From: Calditrichia bacterium | GTDB lineage: Bacteria > Calditrichota > Calditrichia > RBG-13-44-9 | Assembly: GCA_037381445.1 (NCBI GenBank) | Contig: JARRQT010000041.1 | Span: forward strand, 1 to 16,566 | Reading direction: 5' to 3' | Length of the DNA stretch: 16,566 bases | Made by a program: the position numbers and the translations under genes | Shown here: one piece after another, positions 1 to 16,330 of the stretch | Position numbering within the stretch: the stretch's first letter is position 1 | Layout of the letters: the number at the start of each line of letters is the position of its first letter | Notes under the pieces: model-generated | Database searches by the model: none | What the model was told of the DNA's origin: nothing | What the model saw: the letters and a program-made list of their open reading frames with translations, nothing else

Positions 1-492
1 CGGAAAAGCGGTCATCAGATCCAGATTGATATTTTCAAAACCCGCTTTCCGCGCGGATTCGTAATTTTCCAGCACATCGTCCACGGTATGGATGCGCCCC
101 AGGAACTTCAGATCGCGGGAATCGAATGACTGCACGCCCATACTCAGGCGATTTATTCCCATGCGGCGCAGGGCAAGAAGCTTCTCAGAATCGATGGTGC
201 CGGGATTTGCTTCCATGCTGAATTCACCGTCGGCGGCAATGCTGAAATGTTTGTGCAGATGGTTCCAGATACTTTCCAGTTGAGAAATGCTCAGGGTGGT
301 GGGCGTACCGCCGCCAAAAAACACCGTATCGAAATGCAGATCGCCGTGCTGCCGAGCCAGCAGTTCAATTTCATGCAAAAGCGCCGTCACGAAATCGTCA
401 CGGCGCTGCAATGAAGTAATGGAATAAAAATCACAGTATCCACATTTCCTTTCACAGAAGGGAATGTGAATGTAAAGCCCTGCAGATTGCAT
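1..492 (-). CDS. hemW: Radical SAM heme chaperone HemW (HemN-like); partial, runs off the left edge
   Basis: Manual translation from ATG at 492: MQSAGLYIHIPFCERKCGYCDFYS...FFGGGTPT...SMEANPG...NRLSMGVQSF...LGRIH...NINLDLM. Shows the CxxxCxxC radical SAM motif and HemN/HemW family motifs, with no stop down to position 1. Sits in the usual lepA neighbourhood. Confidence 0.92.
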   Translation of the reverse strand, partial: MQSAGLYIHIPFCERKCGYCDFYSITSLQRRDDFVTALLHEIELLARQHGDLHFDTVFFGGGTPTTLSISQLESIWNHLHKHFSIAADGEFSMEANPGTIDSEKLLALRRMGINRLSMGVQSFDSRDLKFLGRIHTVDDVLENYESARKAGFENINLDLMTAFP

Positions 493-497
493 AATGC

Positions 498-1170
498 TTA
501 CCGGATTACCATTGCCAGCCGGTCCCAGCGGATCTTGTGGAACACCCGGTAACCGGGAATATATGAATTTGCCGACAATATTTTCCGGCGGGACAAATCC
601 CCATTCGCGGCTGTCGGAGCTGCGGTCCCGGTTATCTCCCATCATAAAGTAGTGATGGGGCGGCACAGTCACCGGCCCGAAATTGTCCCGGCTTCCCAGG
701 CCGGGCTTGAAAGTGGGATAATACCTGTTGTACCGCGGATAAATGGTCGGGTCGAGGTACTTGAGGTGGGGCGGATTGACAAACTCCTTTCCGTCCACGT
801 AAACCTGTTTATTGATAAGCTCCACCGATTGACCCCCGGTGGCAATGCACCGCTTAATATATTCGAGATGTGGATCGCGCGGATAACGGAATACCACGAT
901 GTCATCCTGATGGGGCGCTTCAATCCGCGGGAATCTGAACCATGGGACGTTAAAGCCGATGCGGGTAAACGGAATTCCGATCCAGTTAGGGGTTTGCGCG
1001 CCGTAGTAAAATTTGTTCACCAGCAGAAAGTCCCCCACCAGGAGCGTATCTTCCATCGAGCTTGTCGGGATCTTGTAGGCAGCGATGACAAATTGCCGCA
1101 GGATCAATGCAGCCAACACAGCCACCAGAATCGCCTGAATGGATTCCCAACGTTTATTTTTGGGTTTCAA
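498..1170 (-). CDS. lepB: Signal peptidase I with a frame disruption near the C-terminus (reads through into hemW; native tail in +1 frame)
   Basis: TTG start at 1170 with SD AAGGAG (1184-1179). MKPKNKRWESIQAILVAVLAALILRQFVIAAYKIPTSSMEDTLLVGDFLLVNK (TM anchor and catalytic Ser box), DIVVF...YIKRC (catalytic Lys), YFMMGDNRDRSSDSREWGFVPPENIVGK (box E). The typical tail ...HKIRWDRLAMVIR* ends at TAA 500-498 but is offset by one base (span 673 nt, not a multiple of 3). Confidence 0.93.
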
Positions 1171-1256
1171 ATATCTATCTCCTTTTAATAACTCCTGTAG
1201 TTTATAGAATTATTTAATCGGTCACAACACTATGAAAGTTTCATACATAATTAAAA

Positions 1257-1286
1257 ATAATAAAATAATAATCCCTGCACTGTAAA
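1257..1286 (-). promoter_or_regulatory. Possible internal sigma70-type promoter for lepB-hemW
   Basis: TTTACA (1286-1281), 18-nt spacer, TATTAT (1262-1257) in the 238-bp AT-rich lepA-lepB gap. The AT richness makes a chance match possible. Confidence 0.35.
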
Positions 1287-1408
1287 AATTTGAATTTCTT
1301 TTTTAATCCTTTGCTGCCCTGCCTGCCATTGAATTCCGGCTTCACATATTAAGGTAAGGCATGAGGCGGCGTAATGTATGATCCGTGCAATCAATTACCG
1401 ATCCCGTA

Positions 1409-3205
1409 TTATTCCGCGGAGAGGACCGCCAGAAATGCTTCCTGTGGAATTTCCACCCGGCCGATCTGCTTCATGCGCTTTTTTCCTTCCTTCTGTTTTT
1501 CCAGAAGCTTGCGCTTCCGGGTGATGTCTCCGCCGTAACATTTGGCCAGAACATTCTTGCGAAGGGGTTTTACCGTTTCGCGCGCGATAATTTTATGACC
1601 GATGCCGGCCTGAATGATGACCTCGAACATCTGACGCGGAATGATGGAGCGCAGTTTGGAGCAGAGTGCCCGACCGTATTCATAGGATTTATCCTGATGC
1701 ACGATAGTGGAAAGGGCATCCAGCGGCTCGCCGTTAATCAAAATATCGAGCTTCACCAGCTTCGATTCACGATAACCGGCAAAATCATAATCAAAAGAAG
1801 CATACCCCCGGGACACGGATTTCAGCTTATCGAAAAAATCGAAGATAACTTCAGACAGCGGGAATTCATATTGGATGTCGGCGCGCGAGGGATCGATATA
1901 ATTGGTGTTTTTCAGAATACCGCGGCGCTCCATGGCAATTTTCATGACATTCCCGATATACTCGGGCGGAGTAATGATTTGCGCCTTGATGAACGGTTCC
2001 TCAATTTTGGCAATTTTCACCGGATCGGGCATCTTGGTCGGGTTGTCAATCAATTTCATTTCACCGCTGGTCTGAGTTACCTGGTAAACCACGTTTGGGG
2101 TAGTCACGATGATTGACTGGCCGAATTCGCGCTCGAGTCTTTCCTGCACAATTTCCATGTGCAGGAGTCCCAGGAAACCTACGCGGAAGCCGAATCCCAA
2201 CGCCGTGGAGGTATCCGGTTCAAACTGAAGGGCGGAGTCATTCAGGGCGAGTTTTTCCAGCGACGTTCGCAGGTCTTCGAATTCCTGGCTCACTACCGGG
2301 AATATTCCGCTGTAAACCATTGGCTTCACGCGCCGGTAACCGGGCAGAGGCCCGGCGGCCCCTTGCTTCACATGGGTAACCGTATCACCAACCCGGATAT
2401 CCCGCACATCTTTGGCCCCGCATATCAGGTAACCCACTTCGCCGGTGGTCAGCTTTTGCCGGGGAATCCGCTTGAGCCTGAGCGTGCCGAGTTCTTCCAC
2501 CTCGAATTCCTGTTGTGTTGCAAAAAAATGAATTTTATCGCCAACGCCGATTTCGCCTTCAAAAACCCGGATAAGCGCTACCACGCCGCGGTAATTGTCA
2601 AAGCTGGAATCAAAAATTAGTGCTTGCAGCATCTTGTCGGCGTGGCCCCTGGGCGGGGGGATTAGATGAATGATTGACTCAACGATTTGTTCGATGCCCT
2701 CCCCGGTCTTGGCGCTTGTCAGAATGATCTCCGACTCATCGCAGCCAATCAGCTCCATAATCTGGTGTTTGGTGGCTTCCACCTGCGCGTTGGGCAGGTC
2801 AATCTTGTTGATCACGGGAATGATTACCAAATCGTTTTCCATCGCGTGATACAGGTTGCTGATGGTTTGGGCTTCCACGCCCTGGGCCGCATCCACCAGC
2901 AGCAGGGCGCCTTCCGCGGCGGCCAGACTGCGCGATACTTCGTAGGAAAAGTCCACATGCCCTGGTGTATCGATCAAATTGAAGATATACTTTTTACCGT
3001 CGGTATGCGCGTAATCCATCCGGATAAAATGGGCTTTGATGGTAATTCCCCGCTCCCGCTCCAGATCCATGGCATCCAGAACCTGGGCCTTGAGCTCGCG
3101 CTTGTCGAGGGTGTGTGTATACTCCAGAAGGCGGTCCGCCAGCGTGGATTTTCCGTGATCGATATGTGCAATGATACAAAAATTTCGAATATTGTCTATA
3201 CTCAT
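1409..3205 (-). CDS. lepA: Translation elongation factor 4 (LepA)
   Basis: 598 aa; [41 protein letters not shown] and the C-terminal [25 protein letters not shown] signature; AAGGA SD upstream. Confidence 0.99.
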
Positions 3206-3668: not shown

Positions 3669-5387
3669 ATGAAATTTGATCTTTCCAGATATACCCTGGA
3701 CTGCTTTTTTGCCAAAGTGCTTGAAAAATACCCGACAAGGCCGGCCTTGGCCGTGGTGGGAGAAATACCGTTCTCCTATGCTGAATTCGGAGAAAAGGTG
3801 AACCATCTGCGAAATAAATTATACGAAGCCGGCATTAGAAAAGGAAGTAGGGTGGCCATTCTGGGGAATTCTTCTCCCCACTGGGGGATTGCCTTTCTGT
3901 CCATCACAACGCTCGGCGCAATTGCGGTCCCTATCATGGAAGATTTCCCGGATACGGATATTGACCACATACTCCGGCATTCGGAGGCGGAGAGCATTTT
4001 TATTTCCCAGAACCTGCTCGAGACGCTGAGCCTGCCGGCAATCGATTATCTCAATTTTGTTATTAACCTGCAGGATTTTGAATTTATCAGAAAACCGCAT
4101 CCGGAAGAGAAGAATATGTGGAGCAAACTGCAGGATATCCCGGGGAAAATTCTGAAAACAAGGGATAACGCCCCCGTCCTGCCCCAAAAATTTGAGTGCC
4201 AGGATATTGAAGAAGATGACATCGCGGAAATTCTGTACACCTCCGGTACCACGGGACATTCCAAGGGGGTGATGCTGACGCATAGGAATCTGGTCAGTAA
4301 TCTGTTTGAGGGACCGGACCTCCTGGGAGTCATCGATGAAAACAGCGTGATTCTCTCCTTCTTGCCGCTGGCCCATGCCTTTGGCTCCACCTCCGCGTTT
4401 CTCTCCATCATTTACTGCGGGGCCAGCATTTGCTATCTGAACCGCAAACCTTCTCCCAAAATCCTGATGGAGGCAATGCAATTGGTAAAGCCGACGATCA
4501 TTGGGGCGGTGCCGTTGATTTTTGAAAAAATCTATCATAAGAGGGTTTTGCCGGTCATTACCGAAAAAAGAATGCTGCGCATTCTGACCAAAAGCCATCT
4601 GGGAAGAAAACTAGTTTACAGGAAGGCAGGGGAAAAAATCATGGAATCATTTGGCGGCCGCTTGAAATGCGCTATCATCGGCGGGGCCAGCCTGAACAGG
4701 GAGGTGGAGATGTTTTTGCGAACGGGCGGAATTCCCTATGCCATGGGCTATGGTTTAAGTGAGTGCTCCCCGCTGGTTGCCTTTTCATCCATAGAGGGGG
4801 TGCGAATCGGTTCGGTGGGCCAGCCGATTAACGATGTTGAGATAAAGATTTTAGATCCGAATCCCAAAACCGGGGTTGGGGAAATTCTGACAAAAGGTCC
4901 CAATGTGATGAAGGGATATTATAAGAATGAACAGGAGACCAGGAAAGTATTTACCGAAGACGGCTGGTTTATTACCGGAGACCGGGGCTATCTGGATAAG
5001 GATGGCTACCTTTATATCAAGGGGAGATCGAAAAATGTGATTATCGAAGCCTCCGGAGAAAATATCTACCCGGAGGTGATTGAGGAGAAACTGAAAGAAT
5101 CCCTTTTTGTCGAGGAGGCCTTGGTTCATATGTCGGGGAATGAGCTGATTGCCCGCATCTACCCCGACTATGAATATATCCGCACGCTGGAGGAAGGCAA
5201 GGAGGAGAACGCCATTGCATCGGACATTCTCCGGATTCTGGAAGATGTCCGGCTTGAAACCAACCGAAAACTTCCCCCGACATCGAAGATTCAAAAAATA
5301 TTCGAGCAGGCCGAACCCTTTGTCAAAACTCCCACAAATAAAATAAAGAGGGCGGAATATATTCCGGATTATTTGTCGGGGTATTAG
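3669..5387 (+). CDS. fadD: Long-chain-fatty-acid--CoA ligase (AMP-binding, FadD-like)
   Basis: 572 aa; YTSGTTGHSKG P-loop, LPLAH, GYGLSE, GEILTKGPNVMKGYY, GWFITGD, GRSKNVI..SGENIYPE and C-terminal KTPTNKIKR; AGGA SD. Confidence 0.92.
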   Translation: MKFDLSRYTLDCFFAKVLEKYPTRPALAVVGEIPFSYAEFGEKVNHLRNKLYEAGIRKGSRVAILGNSSPHWGIAFLSITTLGAIAVPIMEDFPDTDIDHILRHSEAESIFISQNLLETLSLPAIDYLNFVINLQDFEFIRKPHPEEKNMWSKLQDIPGKILKTRDNAPVLPQKFECQDIEEDDIAEILYTSGTTGHSKGVMLTHRNLVSNLFEGPDLLGVIDENSVILSFLPLAHAFGSTSAFLSIIYCGASICYLNRKPSPKILMEAMQLVKPTIIGAVPLIFEKIYHKRVLPVITEKRMLRILTKSHLGRKLVYRKAGEKIMESFGGRLKCAIIGGASLNREVEMFLRTGGIPYAMGYGLSECSPLVAFSSIEGVRIGSVGQPINDVEIKILDPNPKTGVGEILTKGPNVMKGYYKNEQETRKVFTEDGWFITGDRGYLDKDGYLYIKGRSKNVIIEASGENIYPEVIEEKLKESLFVEEALVHMSGNELIARIYPDYEYIRTLEEGKEENAIASDILRILEDVRLETNRKLPPTSKIQKIFEQAEPFVKTPTNKIKRAEYIPDYLSGY

Positions 5388-5686
5388 CGCGTTCAGATTT
5401 TTGGGGAATGACTCATTTTTCTGCTGGAAAGCCGGAGATCGGCCGTGGTGCACTTTTGATAGGATCGGGTATTGCAGAGCGATAATAGCATTACAGGAAT
5501 CAGGAGCACATCAAGAATATTTGATGTTTTATCATTTCCTGGTTCCGCATAATTTGAGCAATGCCGGTGCAGCAGTTAAATTATTGCAGAGAACAAAAAG
5601 CAGTGTTGAAAGTTATATAATCGAAATAAAATAATTTTGTCAGGGATGAAACCACAAAAGTTGAGACGAATTTGCTGAGGAGAAAA

Positions 5687-7210
5687 ATGACACGCGATCG
5701 AAGGGATAAGAACAAAGAAGCCGCTGTTACGAGTGGAACTGAAGGAGAAAATAAAGAAAAAAATCAGCCGGAAGAAGAAATTGTCGAACCGGAAAATGCA
5801 CTTCCCGAAATTACTTTTAATGAGCTTTCCGAAGGAATGAAGGCAGCCGCCGGGCGCGCCGGCTGGAGCCGGCTGATGGATGTTCAGCGGAGAGCGATTC
5901 CATACCTGCTGGCAAAGAGGGATGTTATGATTCAAAGCCGCACCGGCAGCGGAAAAACCGGGGCCTTCCTGCTGCCCATTCTGGAAAGAATCGATATTCA
6001 TAAATCCCATTGCCAGGCGATGATTTTAGTCCCTACCCGGGAGCTTGCCCAGCAGGTGGCCCATGAGGCTGAAATCCTTGGGAAGGACACTGACATCAGG
6101 ATTGCGGTGGTTTACGGCGGCACCGGTTACGGACGGCAGATCGAAGCGCTGCGCGGCGGAGCGCATTTGGTGATCGGAACGCCGGGAAGAATTCTGGACC
6201 ATTTGCTGAGGGGCTCTTTCTCCCTAAAGGAACTGCAGGTGCTGGTGCTGGATGAAGCGGACCGCATGCTGTCCATGGGATTTTACCCGGATATGCTGAA
6301 AGTAAAGGGTTTTCTTCCCTCGCGAAAAATAAATGCATACCTGTTTTCCGCCACATTCCCGCCATATGTCATCCGGCTGGCGGGGCTGTTTCTGGAGCAC
6401 CCTGAAATATTGAGTCTGAGCCGCGATCATGTGCATGTTGCCGAGACCCAGCACATTTTTTATATCGTCCCGGCGATGGAGAAGGACCGGGCGCTGATCC
6501 GGATCATCGAAATGGAAAATCCCGTTTCATGCATTATTTTTTGCAACACCAAATCGACGGTAAATTTTGTATCGATTGTGCTGCAGCGTTTTGGCTACAA
6601 CGCCGATCAACTCACTTCCGATCTTACCCAGAATGCCCGGGACCGGGTCCTCGGCCGGGTGAGAAGCGGGAATCTGCGTTTCCTGGTGGCCACCGATGTG
6701 GCGGCACGCGGTATTGACATACCGGACCTGTCCCACGTGATCCTGTATGAGCCGCCCGAAGATCCGGAAGCCTATATTCACCGGGCTGGGCGCACCGGAC
6801 GCGCCGGGGCCAGCGGGGAGGCTATTTCGCTGGTCAGTAGCCGGGAGCAGATGGATCTGGTTCGTATAGGTAAACGCTTTAATATTGAATTGCTGGAGCG
6901 CCCGCTGCCGTCTGACGAAGACGTGGAAAAAATGGTATCGCAGCGGGTGATTGCCATGCTGGAGTCCCGCCTGCGGGGTTACGATAACGTAAAATTGGAG
7001 CGGATGAAACGTTTTATTCCCCTGGCCAAAAACCTTGAGGAAAATGAAGAGGAAATGAGTCTCATTGCCTCGCTTCTGGATGACTACTACCAGCAAACGC
7101 TTCACGCGCCGCCTGTTTTGCCCCAATCCGGAGAAACCGCTGCCGCACCGGATTCCAGTCAGAGACGAAAAAAATCTTATCGGCGTGGCGGCAAACGGCG
7201 AAGGCGGTGA
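5687..7210 (+). CDS. DEAD-box ATP-dependent RNA helicase
   Basis: TGSGKT, PTRELA, TPGR, DEAD, SAT, TDVAARGID and HRAGRTGRAG motifs. ATG 5687 follows SD GAGGAG (5677-5682) and is preferred over the TTG at 5672. Confidence 0.96.
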   Translation: MTRDRRDKNKEAAVTSGTEGENKEKNQPEEEIVEPENALPEITFNELSEGMKAAAGRAGWSRLMDVQRRAIPYLLAKRDVMIQSRTGSGKTGAFLLPILERIDIHKSHCQAMILVPTRELAQQVAHEAEILGKDTDIRIAVVYGGTGYGRQIEALRGGAHLVIGTPGRILDHLLRGSFSLKELQVLVLDEADRMLSMGFYPDMLKVKGFLPSRKINAYLFSATFPPYVIRLAGLFLEHPEILSLSRDHVHVAETQHIFYIVPAMEKDRALIRIIEMENPVSCIIFCNTKSTVNFVSIVLQRFGYNADQLTSDLTQNARDRVLGRVRSGNLRFLVATDVAARGIDIPDLSHVILYEPPEDPEAYIHRAGRTGRAGASGEAISLVSSREQMDLVRIGKRFNIELLERPLPSDEDVEKMVSQRVIAMLESRLRGYDNVKLERMKRFIPLAKNLEENEEEMSLIASLLDDYYQQTLHAPPVLPQSGETAAAPDSSQRRKKSYRRGGKRRRR

Positions 7211-9575: not shown

Positions 9576-10352
9576 TCAGATATTCAATAGAGCCGGTTGA
9601 ATGCGCAGGGGAAGTTCCAGATCGTTGGTTTCCAGCAGTTCCCTGTTCCTGAATATTTCGGTTGCCGGTCCGTCGGACACAAGCAGGCCTTTGTTCAATA
9701 TGATTACCCGGCTGCAGGTTTCCAGTGCCATATCCAGATCGTGGGTGGTAAGCAGGATGGTCCGGGGACTATTTTGAATCCAGCGGATGATTTTTCGCCG
9801 GTGGGCGAGGTCCAGGTTGCTGGTGGGTTCATCCATGGCGATAATCCGGGGCTGCATGGAAAGAACGGTTGCGATACTGGCCAGCTTGCGCTCGCCGAAA
9901 CTGAGGTGAAAGGAAGACCGCTGCTCGAAACCTTCCAGTCCCACGTCCTGCAGGGCGCTGTGCACGCTGCGCTTGACCTCCTCCGATGACCAACCCATAT
10001 TGAGGGGCCCAAAGGCCACATCTTCAAAAATTGTGGGACAAAAAAGCTGATCATCCGGGTTCTGGAAAACGAGGCCTACCAGCGTTTTTATTCTTATGAG
10101 ATTCTTTTTCGCGACCGGGAGTCCCAGAATTTCCAGTTTTCCCCCGCCCTGCCTCACACCGTTAAAAAGCGTCAGCAATGTGGATTTTCCCGATCCGTTG
10201 GGACCGATAATAGCCACCTTCTCACCCTGCGAAATTTCAAAAGAAAGTCCCTTCAGAGCGGCGGTCCCGTCAGGATAATGGAAAGTGATCCCTTCGGCCC
10301 GAACGGCTTTGGCATTTTCATCGATTTCCGGTATCTCAACTTTATTTGTCAT
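9576..10352 (-). CDS. nikO/cbiO: ECF-type nickel/cobalt transporter ATP-binding subunit (NikO/CbiO)
   Basis: Walker A GPNGSGKST, Q-loop VFQNPDDQLF, signature LSFGE, Walker B IIAMDEP, H-loop TTHD; last gene of the nik operon. The start could instead be the adjacent GTG at 10355. Confidence 0.93.
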   Translation of the reverse strand: MTNKVEIPEIDENAKAVRAEGITFHYPDGTAALKGLSFEISQGEKVAIIGPNGSGKSTLLTLFNGVRQGGGKLEILGLPVAKKNLIRIKTLVGLVFQNPDDQLFCPTIFEDVAFGPLNMGWSSEEVKRSVHSALQDVGLEGFEQRSSFHLSFGERKLASIATVLSMQPRIIAMDEPTSNLDLAHRRKIIRWIQNSPRTILLTTHDLDMALETCSRVIILNKGLLVSDGPATEIFRNRELLETNDLELPLRIQPALLNI

Positions 10353-10385
10353 CACAAAATTTTCCTTTTATATCCTGCGAAATTG

Positions 10386-11141
10386 TCATACTAAAAAAGG
10401 AATGCATAAAAAGATCAGGAACACGGCAAGCACCATGCTGTCCGAAAATTTCCATTCCAGTTCGCCGATGGTATAAATCTCGCCGCTGAATCCTCTGGCG
10501 TCCATGGCTTGGTACACCCGCTCCCCCCTTTCATAGGTCCTGATAAAGAGCACCCCGATCTGGCGGGCCAGCATTTTCAGGCGGGTGAAAACCGGCAGCC
10601 TGATATAGCGTGACTGAAAAGCCATCAGCATGCGTTCCGTTTCATCGATCAGCAGAAAGATGAAACGGTACATAAAAGACAGGATAATGATCATCACCCG
10701 CGGTACCTTCAGCTTTTCCATTCCCTTCAGCAGCATTGAAAAATCGGTGGTGGTGGTCAAAACAATGGACATGAACATGGCGAGAATAGACTTGATATTG
10801 ATCATCAAGAATTTTTGCAGTCCCGGTTCATAAATTTTTAAAAATCCCCAATGATAACCCACACCGTTCCCGCCAGGAAAAAAGGGCAGCAGGAACGTGA
10901 TCAAAAAGATCATGGGATAGATTTTTGAAAGCTTGGACAGAAAGTGAAAAAAGGACACCCCGCTGGCAAGGGCCAGGACAACAGGTATGACCGTCAGATA
11001 CATGAAATAATGTTTTGCCGAATAGGGAATGGCCACCACCACCAGGATATAAAGCACCATCATTATGACTTTAAGGCGCGGATCCGCTTTGTGAACGGGG
11101 CTGTCGCCGGCACGGTGATGATCGAGAAAATCGTGTTTCAT
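10386..11141 (-). CDS. nikQ/cbiQ: ECF transporter transmembrane T component (NikQ/CbiQ)
   Basis: True start is ATG 11141 (MKHDFLDHHRAGDSPVHKADPRLK), which overlaps the nikN stop as ATGA. Multiple TM helices, MYRFIFLL..E, SR and RTYERGERVYQAMDARGF motifs; 251 aa. Confidence 0.93.
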   Translation of the reverse strand: MKHDFLDHHRAGDSPVHKADPRLKVIMMVLYILVVVAIPYSAKHYFMYLTVIPVVLALASGVSFFHFLSKLSKIYPMIFLITFLLPFFPGGNGVGYHWGFLKIYEPGLQKFLMINIKSILAMFMSIVLTTTTDFSMLLKGMEKLKVPRVMIIILSFMYRFIFLLIDETERMLMAFQSRYIRLPVFTRLKMLARQIGVLFIRTYERGERVYQAMDARGFSGEIYTIGELEWKFSDSMVLAVFLIFLCIPFLV

Positions 11142-11449
11142 GATTTTCGTCTCCTTTTTTGCGGGCCCCGGTTCCGGAAATGATAAATCAGGTAAATGAT
11201 GCCGGACAGAAGACCCGCTCCGATCAGGCCTGAGAGGATTTGGTTTAACCCGGATGGCAGTTGGGAGGACACGGTGTAATCTGCCAGCGGCGCCGCGTGC
11301 TGAGGATTGTCGTGATGGAGAATTCCCAGTTTCCCCGCTACACTTTCCAGGCCGTCCGGGAGAGAGGATGAAAAAATGGTCAGGAGAAGCAAAATGATAA
11401 AAATACCGAAGATTATCCACCCAAGACGAACGCTGCTGAGTTTTCTCAT
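11138..11449 (-). CDS. nikN: PDGLE-domain membrane protein (NikN-like auxiliary component)
   Basis: 103 aa; two hydrophobic segments flanking SSSLPDGLESVA and APLADY motifs; ATGA overlaps with nikM and nikQ. Confidence 0.9.
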   Translation of the reverse strand: MRKLSSVRLGWIIFGIFIILLLLTIFSSSLPDGLESVAGKLGILHHDNPQHAAPLADYTVSSQLPSGLNQILSGLIGAGLLSGIIYLIYHFRNRGPQKRRRKS

Positions 11450-12117
11450 TTTTCTGCGGCCTCCTTTACCGGCGATTCAAGGGAAAGAATCATATCGGGA
11501 CGGATACTGCGGATGGATTCGTAAATGAACAGGGTCATGATCCCTTCCAGCAAGCCAATGACGGCATGAACGCCGGCGAGCAGCCCGATGCTCACTTTCA
11601 TGTCCGCCAGACCGGAAAATCCCAGCTCTGTGCCGCACAAAATTGCGCTGACTTCCACAGAAATCCATGCTGCCAGGAAAACGGAAAAGGACTGAAAAAG
11701 ACGCGAGTGAAAAAATTTTCTGTTAATCCTCTCCAGATGGTAAAAAAGGAGGTAACTGATCCCGACTCCGGTGATGCCCATGTTGAGAATATTCGCGCCC
11801 AGCGCAGTGATCCCGCCATCCTGAAAAAGGAGCATCTGCACTACCAGTACCAGTGCGATGATGAAAATCCCTGCCGACGGGCCCACCACCAGCGCTGCCA
11901 GAAATCCCCCCAGAAGATGGCCGGAGGTCCCGCCGGTCACCGGAATGTTGATCATTTGCGCCACAAATATGAAAGCCGCCAGCATGGCAATTTTGGGCAC
12001 GGTCTGCTGGTCAAACTGCTTTTTGACCTTCTGCCACACAATTGCCAGCCCGCTGACAGAAACCGTGTACGTTGCGGCGATGGTCGGTGTATTCAGAAAA
12101 CCGTCAGGAATATGCAT
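11446..12117 (-). CDS. nikM/cbiM: ECF transporter substrate-binding S component NikM (CbiM family)
   Basis: N-terminal MHIPDGFL metal-binding motif (NikM-type rather than the CbiM MHIMEG type), GGTSGHLLG, DGGITALGAN and HAVIGLLEG. Confidence 0.95.
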   Translation of the reverse strand: MHIPDGFLNTPTIAATYTVSVSGLAIVWQKVKKQFDQQTVPKIAMLAAFIFVAQMINIPVTGGTSGHLLGGFLAALVVGPSAGIFIIALVLVVQMLLFQDGGITALGANILNMGITGVGISYLLFYHLERINRKFFHSRLFQSFSVFLAAWISVEVSAILCGTELGFSGLADMKVSIGLLAGVHAVIGLLEGIMTLFIYESIRSIRPDMILSLESPVKEAAEK

Positions 12118-12120
12118 GGC

Positions 12121-12534
12121 CTAAATCAGATCCTTTCCTGTGGATGTCAGGTTCAATGTTCCATGTTTCACGCCCTTGGCGGCAATGAGCTTCTCCGCCA
12201 GCTGTTTTACATCCTGGCTCTTTCCGCGCATCAGGATCACCTCGATGCAGTTGTCATGGTCCAGGTGAATATGCATGGAAGAAAGGACCTGATCGTGGTG
12301 ATCGTGCTGAATATCGGTCAGTTTATCTGTCAGTTCGCGGCGGTGATGATTATACAGAATGTTTACTACACCCACCACCTCGGCATTTTTATTAACTTCT
12401 TCCTGAATCAGTTCTTTTCGGATCAGATCGCGAATGGCTTCGGAACGGTTTGAATAGTGTTTCTTTTCAATATGTTCATCGAAATTCTTGCTCAATTCAT
12501 CGGGAATTGAAACGCCAAATCGAATCAGTTTCAT
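12121..12534 (-). CDS. nikR: Nickel-responsive transcriptional regulator NikR
   Basis: Ribbon-helix-helix N-terminus RFGVSI...YSNRSEAIRDLIR; ACT-like domain with Ni ligands QH...HIHL...C(IEV); SD GAGG upstream. Confidence 0.97.
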   Translation of the reverse strand: MKLIRFGVSIPDELSKNFDEHIEKKHYSNRSEAIRDLIRKELIQEEVNKNAEVVGVVNILYNHHRRELTDKLTDIQHDHHDQVLSSMHIHLDHDNCIEVILMRGKSQDVKQLAEKLIAAKGVKHGTLNLTSTGKDLI

Positions 12535-15322: not shown

Positions 15323-16330
15323 TCATTTATTCACTGAATTCTGACTTTTCAGAATTGATGTCATCAGCCGCTCCAGGTCTACGGGCACAACGCCCACTTC
15401 TTCGCAAACCAGCCCGGCCGCGTAATTGGAAAGTGTGACGGCCTCCTTCATAGTGGCGCCGCCGCACAACGCATAGGTCAGTGTGGCAATCACCGTATCC
15501 CCGGCACCGGACACATCGGCGACCTTGCGGGCGCGGGTATCCAGAAATGCCGGTTCCTCTCCCTGTTCGAACAATGCCATTCCCCTGGAACCGCGGGTGA
15601 TCAGCACGGCCCTGGAATTGAGGGAACGGAGCAGATCCGCGCCGGCGTTCTTCACATCCGCCTCATCCCGGATTCGAATGGCCAGCGCCTCCTCGGCCTC
15701 TTTTGTGTTGGGTTTGAACAGGGTAACATTTTTAAAAGAGAAGAAATTTTCGAATTTAGGATCGACGGTCACATATCTACCGTGCCGGTTGGCCAGATCG
15801 GTGATATGTTCCACCAGCGGCGGGACCGCCACTCCTTTATTATAATCCTGAATAATGATTGCGGAAACGTCATCAATGAGGGAAACAAAAATATCGAACA
15901 GTTTTTCCTGCACAGAATTTGGGAGCGGTAAAACCGATTCCTTATCGACCCGCGCCACGTGCTGATTATTTCCGATTATGCGTGTTTTTACGGTGGTGGG
16001 ACGGTCATCGGAAACAACGATTCCATCCGATGGCAGATTGTTTTCCCGGAGCATATCCAGAAACACACTGCCCATCCGGTCGTTTCCCACAACCCCGGTG
16101 AGTACCGGGGTAGCCTTTAGTCCTACCAGGTTGTAGGCGACGTTGGCCGCGCCTCCAAAGCGCAGTTGTTCGGAAGCGATATTAATGATGGGCACCGGCG
16201 CTTCCGGCGACAGGCGGGAGACTTCCCCCCACAAATATTCATCCACCATCAAATCGCCAAAGACGATGATTTTCTTTCCTTCGGCATTCGCGGCAATTTC
16301 CTGCAAGCGTTTTTCTGTAAAGCGAATCAA
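15323..16330 (-). CDS. rfaE1: D-glycero-beta-D-manno-heptose-7-phosphate kinase (HldE domain I / HldA)
   Basis: GDLMVDEYLWG..RLSPEAPVP, GGAANVA, TTVKTRI, QDYNKG, VDPK, KPN..E and DVSGAGDT (PfkB family); TTG start with GGAG SD. Confidence 0.95.
   Translation of the reverse strand: MIRFTEKRLQEIAANAEGKKIIVFGDLMVDEYLWGEVSRLSPEAPVPIINIASEQLRFGGAANVAYNLVGLKATPVLTGVVGNDRMGSVFLDMLRENNLPSDGIVVSDDRPTTVKTRIIGNNQHVARVDKESVLPLPNSVQEKLFDIFVSLIDDVSAIIIQDYNKGVAVPPLVEHITDLANRHGRYVTVDPKFENFFSFKNVTLFKPNTKEAEEALAIRIRDEADVKNAGADLLRSLNSRAVLITRGSRGMALFEQGEEPAFLDTRARKVADVSGAGDTVIATLTYALCGGATMKEAVTLSNYAAGLVCEEVGVVPVDLERLMTSILKSQNSVNK

Follow-up and report, generated by a model that had tools for sequence, protein, structure and literature searches.

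The 390-aa reading frame that appears to join lepB to hemW at the beginning of the window is almost certainly the product of a local assembly error in which 26 bases of lepB are missing, and lepB and hemW themselves are ordinary genes of a Calditrichota-type bacterium. The window is the whole 16,566-nt stretch of DNA analysed here, positions 1-16566 of contig C41 (38,556 nt) of the genome assembly referred to below as G000. The fusion is not regarded as real, since lepB and hemW are two separate, ordinary genes in other assemblies of this organism.

The reading frame in the deposited sequence

A sequence-only reading had described a minus-strand frame open from a TTG at 1170 down to position 1, with lepB running in-frame into hemW, and re-reading bears this out. 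The frame is free of stops over 390 aa and carries the Pfam domains Peptidase_S26 (residues 8-202) and Radical_SAM (residues 233-390), with TIGR02227 and TIGR00539 as its best NCBIfam families. The order of its parts is likewise as first described, at the same coordinates. The first 201 codons of lepB (568..1170, minus strand, TTG start) encode the N-terminal membrane helix, the catalytic Ser38 and Lys106, and the GDNR box of a signal peptidase I, and end in GFVPPENIVGK at 568. They are followed by a Pro/Gly-rich stretch of 25 aa (493..567, minus strand) and then by MQSAGLYIHIPFC from the ATG at 492, where codons 1-164 of hemW begin (1..492, minus strand). The native tail of LepB, SYIPGYRVFHKIRWDRLAMVIR*, lies in the neighbouring frame (498..566, minus strand; codons 211-232 and the TAA), with the hemW ATG 5 nt beyond its stop, again in agreement with the earlier coordinates. 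The frame of this tail is lost solely through the missing 26 nt, and the apparent linker is a wrong-frame reading of the tail and the 5-nt spacer that corresponds to no real peptide.

Upstream of lepB lies a 598-aa ORF (1409..3205, minus strand), mentioned for context only, which we take from its sequence to be lepA. Farther into the window, positions 9576-12534 of the minus strand presumably hold a nikR-like regulator followed by cbiM/N/Q/O-like genes for nickel or cobalt uptake; the listed start of the ORF at 10386-11420 looks too early. A single N stands at C41:16567, right behind the end of the window.

Comparison with other assemblies

The contigs of four public runs (X1 to X4) were compared with window positions 1-1600. 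X1 is a possible source of the window DNA, X2 and X3 (about 97% identical) derive from one sample of another study, and the X4 contigs do not cover the junction. One X1 contig (depth 8.55) spans all of 1-1600; it differs in one letter and has 26 additional nt behind 567, and X2 and X3 each supply one contig with the identical insertion. The form of the window that is 26 nt short was absent from the contigs of X1, X2, and X3, the three runs that cover the junction, with the proviso that contigs can lose rare variants. With the 26 nt restored, the lepB frame is ...GK-PLIIYLSWN-SYIPG...VIR and ends in the stop at 498.

The missing segment therefore falls at 567..568 on the minus strand, where the joint can be slid by 2 nt, and intact copies there encode PLIIYLSWN (residues 202-210), as placed by the contigs of all three runs, by the DNA alignment, and by the intact protein P0123. 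When DNA from 12 relatives of the same family was aligned to size the gap, a 26-column gap appeared in the window only, all 12 relatives being filled. The sequence-only reading had predicted that a deletion of 3n+2 nt, some 8-9 codons, directly after GGC AAA took away a hydrophobic strand; it amounts to exactly 26 nt. The extra bases at 567/568 that bring LepB back into one frame ending at the TAA at 498 are present in the contigs of other assemblies, as distinct from raw reads.

In the protein collection, the corresponding cluster has three members, namely the 390-aa fused form, which comes from the window's contig alone, and two intact 232-aa forms. P0123, encoded on a contig of 5,739 nt, the length of an X1 record, has the same residues 1-201 as the window and goes on with PLIIYLSWNSYIPG...VIR; P0002 lies one residue apart from P0123. 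The fused frame thus recurs in none of the three runs covering the site, in none of 36 relatives, and in one of three cluster members, the window's own. Of the recent mutation and the assembly artefact that had been offered as alternatives, the artefact is supported and a real recent mutation is not.

Over the whole window, the 26 nt are the sole indel relative to the main contigs of X1, of which records 1, 2, 4, 5, 6, and 8 differ from the window by 2, 0, 1, 0, 0, and 0 letters. At 4613 and 5764, X1, X2, and X3 share another letter against the window; one of these differences is silent (Leu), and the other replaces Asn by Lys within the ORF at 5672-7210. They may be consensus errors or a result of strain mixing. 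In X1 there is also a second, minor strain (depth about 3-6), met at window positions 5445-5608 and 15896-16172, which has letters in common with X2 and X3.

Signal peptidase I

The intact lepB would encode a signal peptidase I (S26A), an enzyme expected from its family to cleave signal peptides on the outer side of the membrane. P0123 matches TIGR02227 with 151.9 bits (cut-off 47) over profile positions 2-161 of 162, and the match of the window's copy, which lacks residues 202-210, ends at profile position 156. Named homologs are Calditrichota signal peptidases. S38, K106, and G178-D179-N180-R181 are invariant in 62 homologs, and S38 and K106 align with the E. coli boxes as a Ser-Lys dyad. 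The hydrophobic strand that follows GDNR...VG(K/R) is present in the contigs of X1, X2, and X3 and in both P0123 and P0002, and is missing only in the window's assembly. Within and behind it, L203, I204, and Y206 are each conserved in 58 of the 62 homologs and S208, R223, and R226 in all 62, and the fused frame sheds residues 202-232, including the three invariant positions.

For the fold of P0123 an alignment-based model was used (pLDDT 76, against 38 for the single-sequence fold). It has one N-terminal helix and a strand at 198-206, the block 201-210 reaching a pLDDT of just 62. The model superimposes on E. coli LepB with Z 13.4 and rmsd 3.8 over 165 aligned residues, and the protein belongs with the LepB family as represented by TIGR02227, PF10502, and the E. 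coli structures 1T7D, 1B12, 1KN9, and 9NLO. The E. coli segment GRATAIWMS aligns with GKPLIIYLS of the intact protein; unlike E. coli LepB, the Calditrichia protein is shorter, at 232 aa, and has a single N-terminal helix. Trp300 is reportedly important for the activity of the E. coli enzyme, according to the title of a study, and by our own count Y206 would correspond to this residue. W300, M301, and F303 are listed as membrane-contacting in a portion of PMC1934363. In E. coli, signal peptidase I is essential, with its catalytic domain on the periplasmic side (PMC9360617, section 2.4.1).

HemW

The start of the contig cuts hemW, which is completed on another contig of the same assembly. Window positions 1-119 are an exact 119-nt overlap with C30:1-119, and hemW runs on there to 376 aa in all. 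Its motifs are CERKCGYC (CxxxCxxC, of the radical SAM heme chaperone) in the window and HNLRYW on C30, and an excerpt of PMC10114718 gives HNxxYW as a HemW motif. TIGR00539 is the best NCBIfam family for each of the two overlapping halves, which score 173.5 and 170.7 bits when taken apart (the cut-off of 205.4 applies to the whole protein). Family and both motifs are shared with HemW and nothing unusual was seen in either half; the gene is split over two contigs of the assembly.

The junction in related genomes

Forty-one genomes were searched, G000 included, and 36 of the 40 relatives gave a scorable junction; the loci of G005, G007, and G023 have none, and G034 was left out. lepB and hemW are neighbours across the order and class sampled, and in all 36 scored relatives lepB stops 24-34 codons after the GK, ahead of hemW. 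The LepB-HemW fusion protein of the earlier reading is not upheld, and both checks named in that reading went against a real fusion: contigs of other assemblies carry the extra bases, and a fusion is absent from every scored relative.

At four loci (L002, L003, L004, and L014, in G002, G013, G015, and G006), hemW lies in the frame of lepB, 6 nt behind the stop, so that the loss of one stop would fuse the genes; none was seen. Two tandem copies of lepB stand upstream of hemW in 12 genomes of the sister family f3 (L019, L022, L024, L025, L030, L033, and L035-L040, in G018, G024-G029, G031-G033, G035, and G036), and the window's family shows one. In G033 the lepB-hemW locus is split on two contigs.

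Deletions across the assembly

ORFs were taken from 800 kb of the relative G009, 400 kb of G013, and 400 kb of G010 and compared with G000, keeping matches of at least 50% identity and at least 70% coverage. Frame breaks in G000 were found in 14/397, 6/142, and 9/203 of these forward tests (G009, G013, and G010, respectively). Of the 29 events, 24 are deletions, each 20-197 nt long and together falling at 20 distinct sites; the other five consist of a 1-nt shift, a single N gap met twice, one tandem duplication of 73 nt, and an unexplained gain of 164. In the reverse tests, in which ORFs of G000 were searched against the relatives, breaks numbered 2/430, 0/151, and 6/219; three of these eight, including the one in lepB, mirror deletions of G000 itself, and the remaining five are gaps of 100 N in G010. 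No N-free deletion in a relative was seen in the 800 reverse tests. The G010 artefact consists of 100 N with duplicated flanks of 55 nt, a frame shift of 155 nt (L123:1990, L123:6340, L129:16430, and L130:5950). The count is a lower bound, as deletions that preserve the frame escape the scan and the forward tests did not pick up lepB itself. The 29 events in about 830 kb tested correspond to roughly one per 30 kb of conserved coding sequence, a rate that by extrapolation would give about 150 silent breaks genome-wide.

DNA alignments at 11 deletion sites gave net gaps of 62-197 nt, and no Ns were found near the 11 N-free sites checked. The broken genes include rho (C20:35775), lnt (C350:3450), mutS (C100:2980), hflC (C9:6110), and hemN (C396:1540), and further N-free deletions lie at C30:3220, 7654, and 8110; 7 of the 13 genes scanned matched no family at E 1e-40. 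Ten broken fragments were looked up, of which seven found nothing and three were on record: one is a singleton, and two, including lnt, share a cluster with proteins of full length that come from other assemblies and are 93-98% identical. Exact microhomology, of the sort that a repeat-driven deletion would leave, was absent at 10 of the 11 other sites, in a weak test that used the DNA of a relative at 61-82% identity; the lepB joint slides by 2 nt.

G000 further contains 79 runs of N (1-107 nt), and in 83 cases its contig ends overlap by 119 nt. It also has 18 unspaced tandem duplications (26-101 nt), of which 1.6 Mb of three relatives shows none.

Alternative explanations

It is very unlikely that the sampled strain, or a subpopulation of it, has genuinely and recently lost the 26 nt and makes a LepB-HemW read-through protein that is briefly tolerated or rescued by a paralog. 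As the window also differs from X1 at a few single letters, it may come from a sample or strain other than X1, which sides with X2 and X3 at 4613 and 5764, and the X1 contig could in principle owe its 26 nt to the minor strain; that contig follows the window, however, at all but 2 of 5,474 letters, whereas in the other strain 48 of about 1,530 (~3%) are different, which makes a minor-strain form at this one site improbable. The contigs compared do drop rare variants. An unseen paralog is conceivable in an assembly that is 91.85% complete, and tandem copies of lepB occur in the order, in the 12 sister-family genomes, but the contig search of G000 for a second lepB, a check that the earlier reading had proposed, revealed none. 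Moreover, rho and lnt are interrupted in this assembly by gaps of the same type, and a living cell is unlikely to bear all of these breaks together. Slightly less probable still is that a real strain of the sampled sediment has the deletion and survives on a signal peptidase I joined to HemW and missing the final conserved strand; if this were true, that strand, or a stand-alone signal peptidase I, would be dispensable.

We give hardly any credence to an evolved arrangement, be it a LepB-HemW fusion, a self-cleaving polyprotein, or a programmed +1 frameshift, by which secretion would be linked with heme trafficking, and the sequence-only reading had already ranked it lower. The two genes are indeed neighbours throughout the order and class sampled, and hemW follows in the frame of lepB in 8 of 36 relatives, but this fraction does not exceed the one third expected by chance. 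Open frames of 700 aa over both genes were initially listed for four relatives (G003, G020, G022, and G036) and were rejected as real fusions, each containing the lepB stop in-frame. The AAA-TTC-A run at which a shift might occur is created by the deletion joint and found there only; it is present in none of the 12 aligned relatives, all of which read through in one frame. HemW is a cytoplasmic protein, at odds with the periplasmic catalytic domain to which it would be joined, and the LepB domain in the fused frame is not whole, having lost residues 202-232. When the protein collection was searched with the 390-aa query, the best 120 of 7,820 matches were all stand-alone S26 proteins of 216-281 aa with PF10502 only, none of them fused; a second search, with residues 1-201, gave the same result. 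This absence is weak evidence because fused forms can sit under short representatives, as the window's own does, and both searches covered cluster representatives of 214-683 aa. The literature search yielded no paper combining lepB, hemW, and fusion. For this organism, the intact forms in other assemblies refute an evolved fusion.

Origin of the gap and implications

The assembly error that we prefer accounts for the frame, as a 26-nt gap would by itself carry the reading past the lepB stop and into hemW. Unfilled scaffold joins are its likely cause because G000 is scaffolded, as its 79 N gaps of variable length attest. We infer that, during scaffolding, the assembler placed contigs end to end and left the true gap between them neither filled nor marked. 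The N runs, tandem duplications, and 119-nt end overlaps fit a de Bruijn assembly with gap-estimating scaffolding, in which a positive estimate would have been written as Ns, and a wrong one would have produced butt joins with sequence dropped or duplicated.

Comparable errors have been described. A portion of PMC7111523 reports local errors backed by no read and duplications at scaffold joins in scaffolded metagenome assemblies, local assembly errors being suspected most in those made by IDBA-UD, and a portion of PMC11017572 traces many putative pseudogenes to low-coverage assembly. The present case shares with those accounts, as far as these portions go, a consensus absent from other assemblies, broken coding genes, low depth (the word depth of X1 is about 8.5), and a scaffolded assembly. 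It differs from the portion of PMC7111523 in that N-free deletions of 20-200 nt are not described there in those words, and the attribution to scaffold joins is our own.

In the cell, lepB and hemW would be separate neighbours, lepB encoding a Ser-Lys signal peptidase I anchored in the membrane and hemW, which begins 5 nt farther downstream, a radical SAM heme chaperone of the cytoplasm, as predicted from family knowledge. A false 390-aa protein has already entered the public protein collection. Fusions, truncations, and pseudogenes from this genome should first be compared with other assemblies. As to the biology of this bacterium, lepB and hemW are almost certainly ordinary, and the value of the finding lies in the warning it gives of silent, N-free deletions in this assembly.
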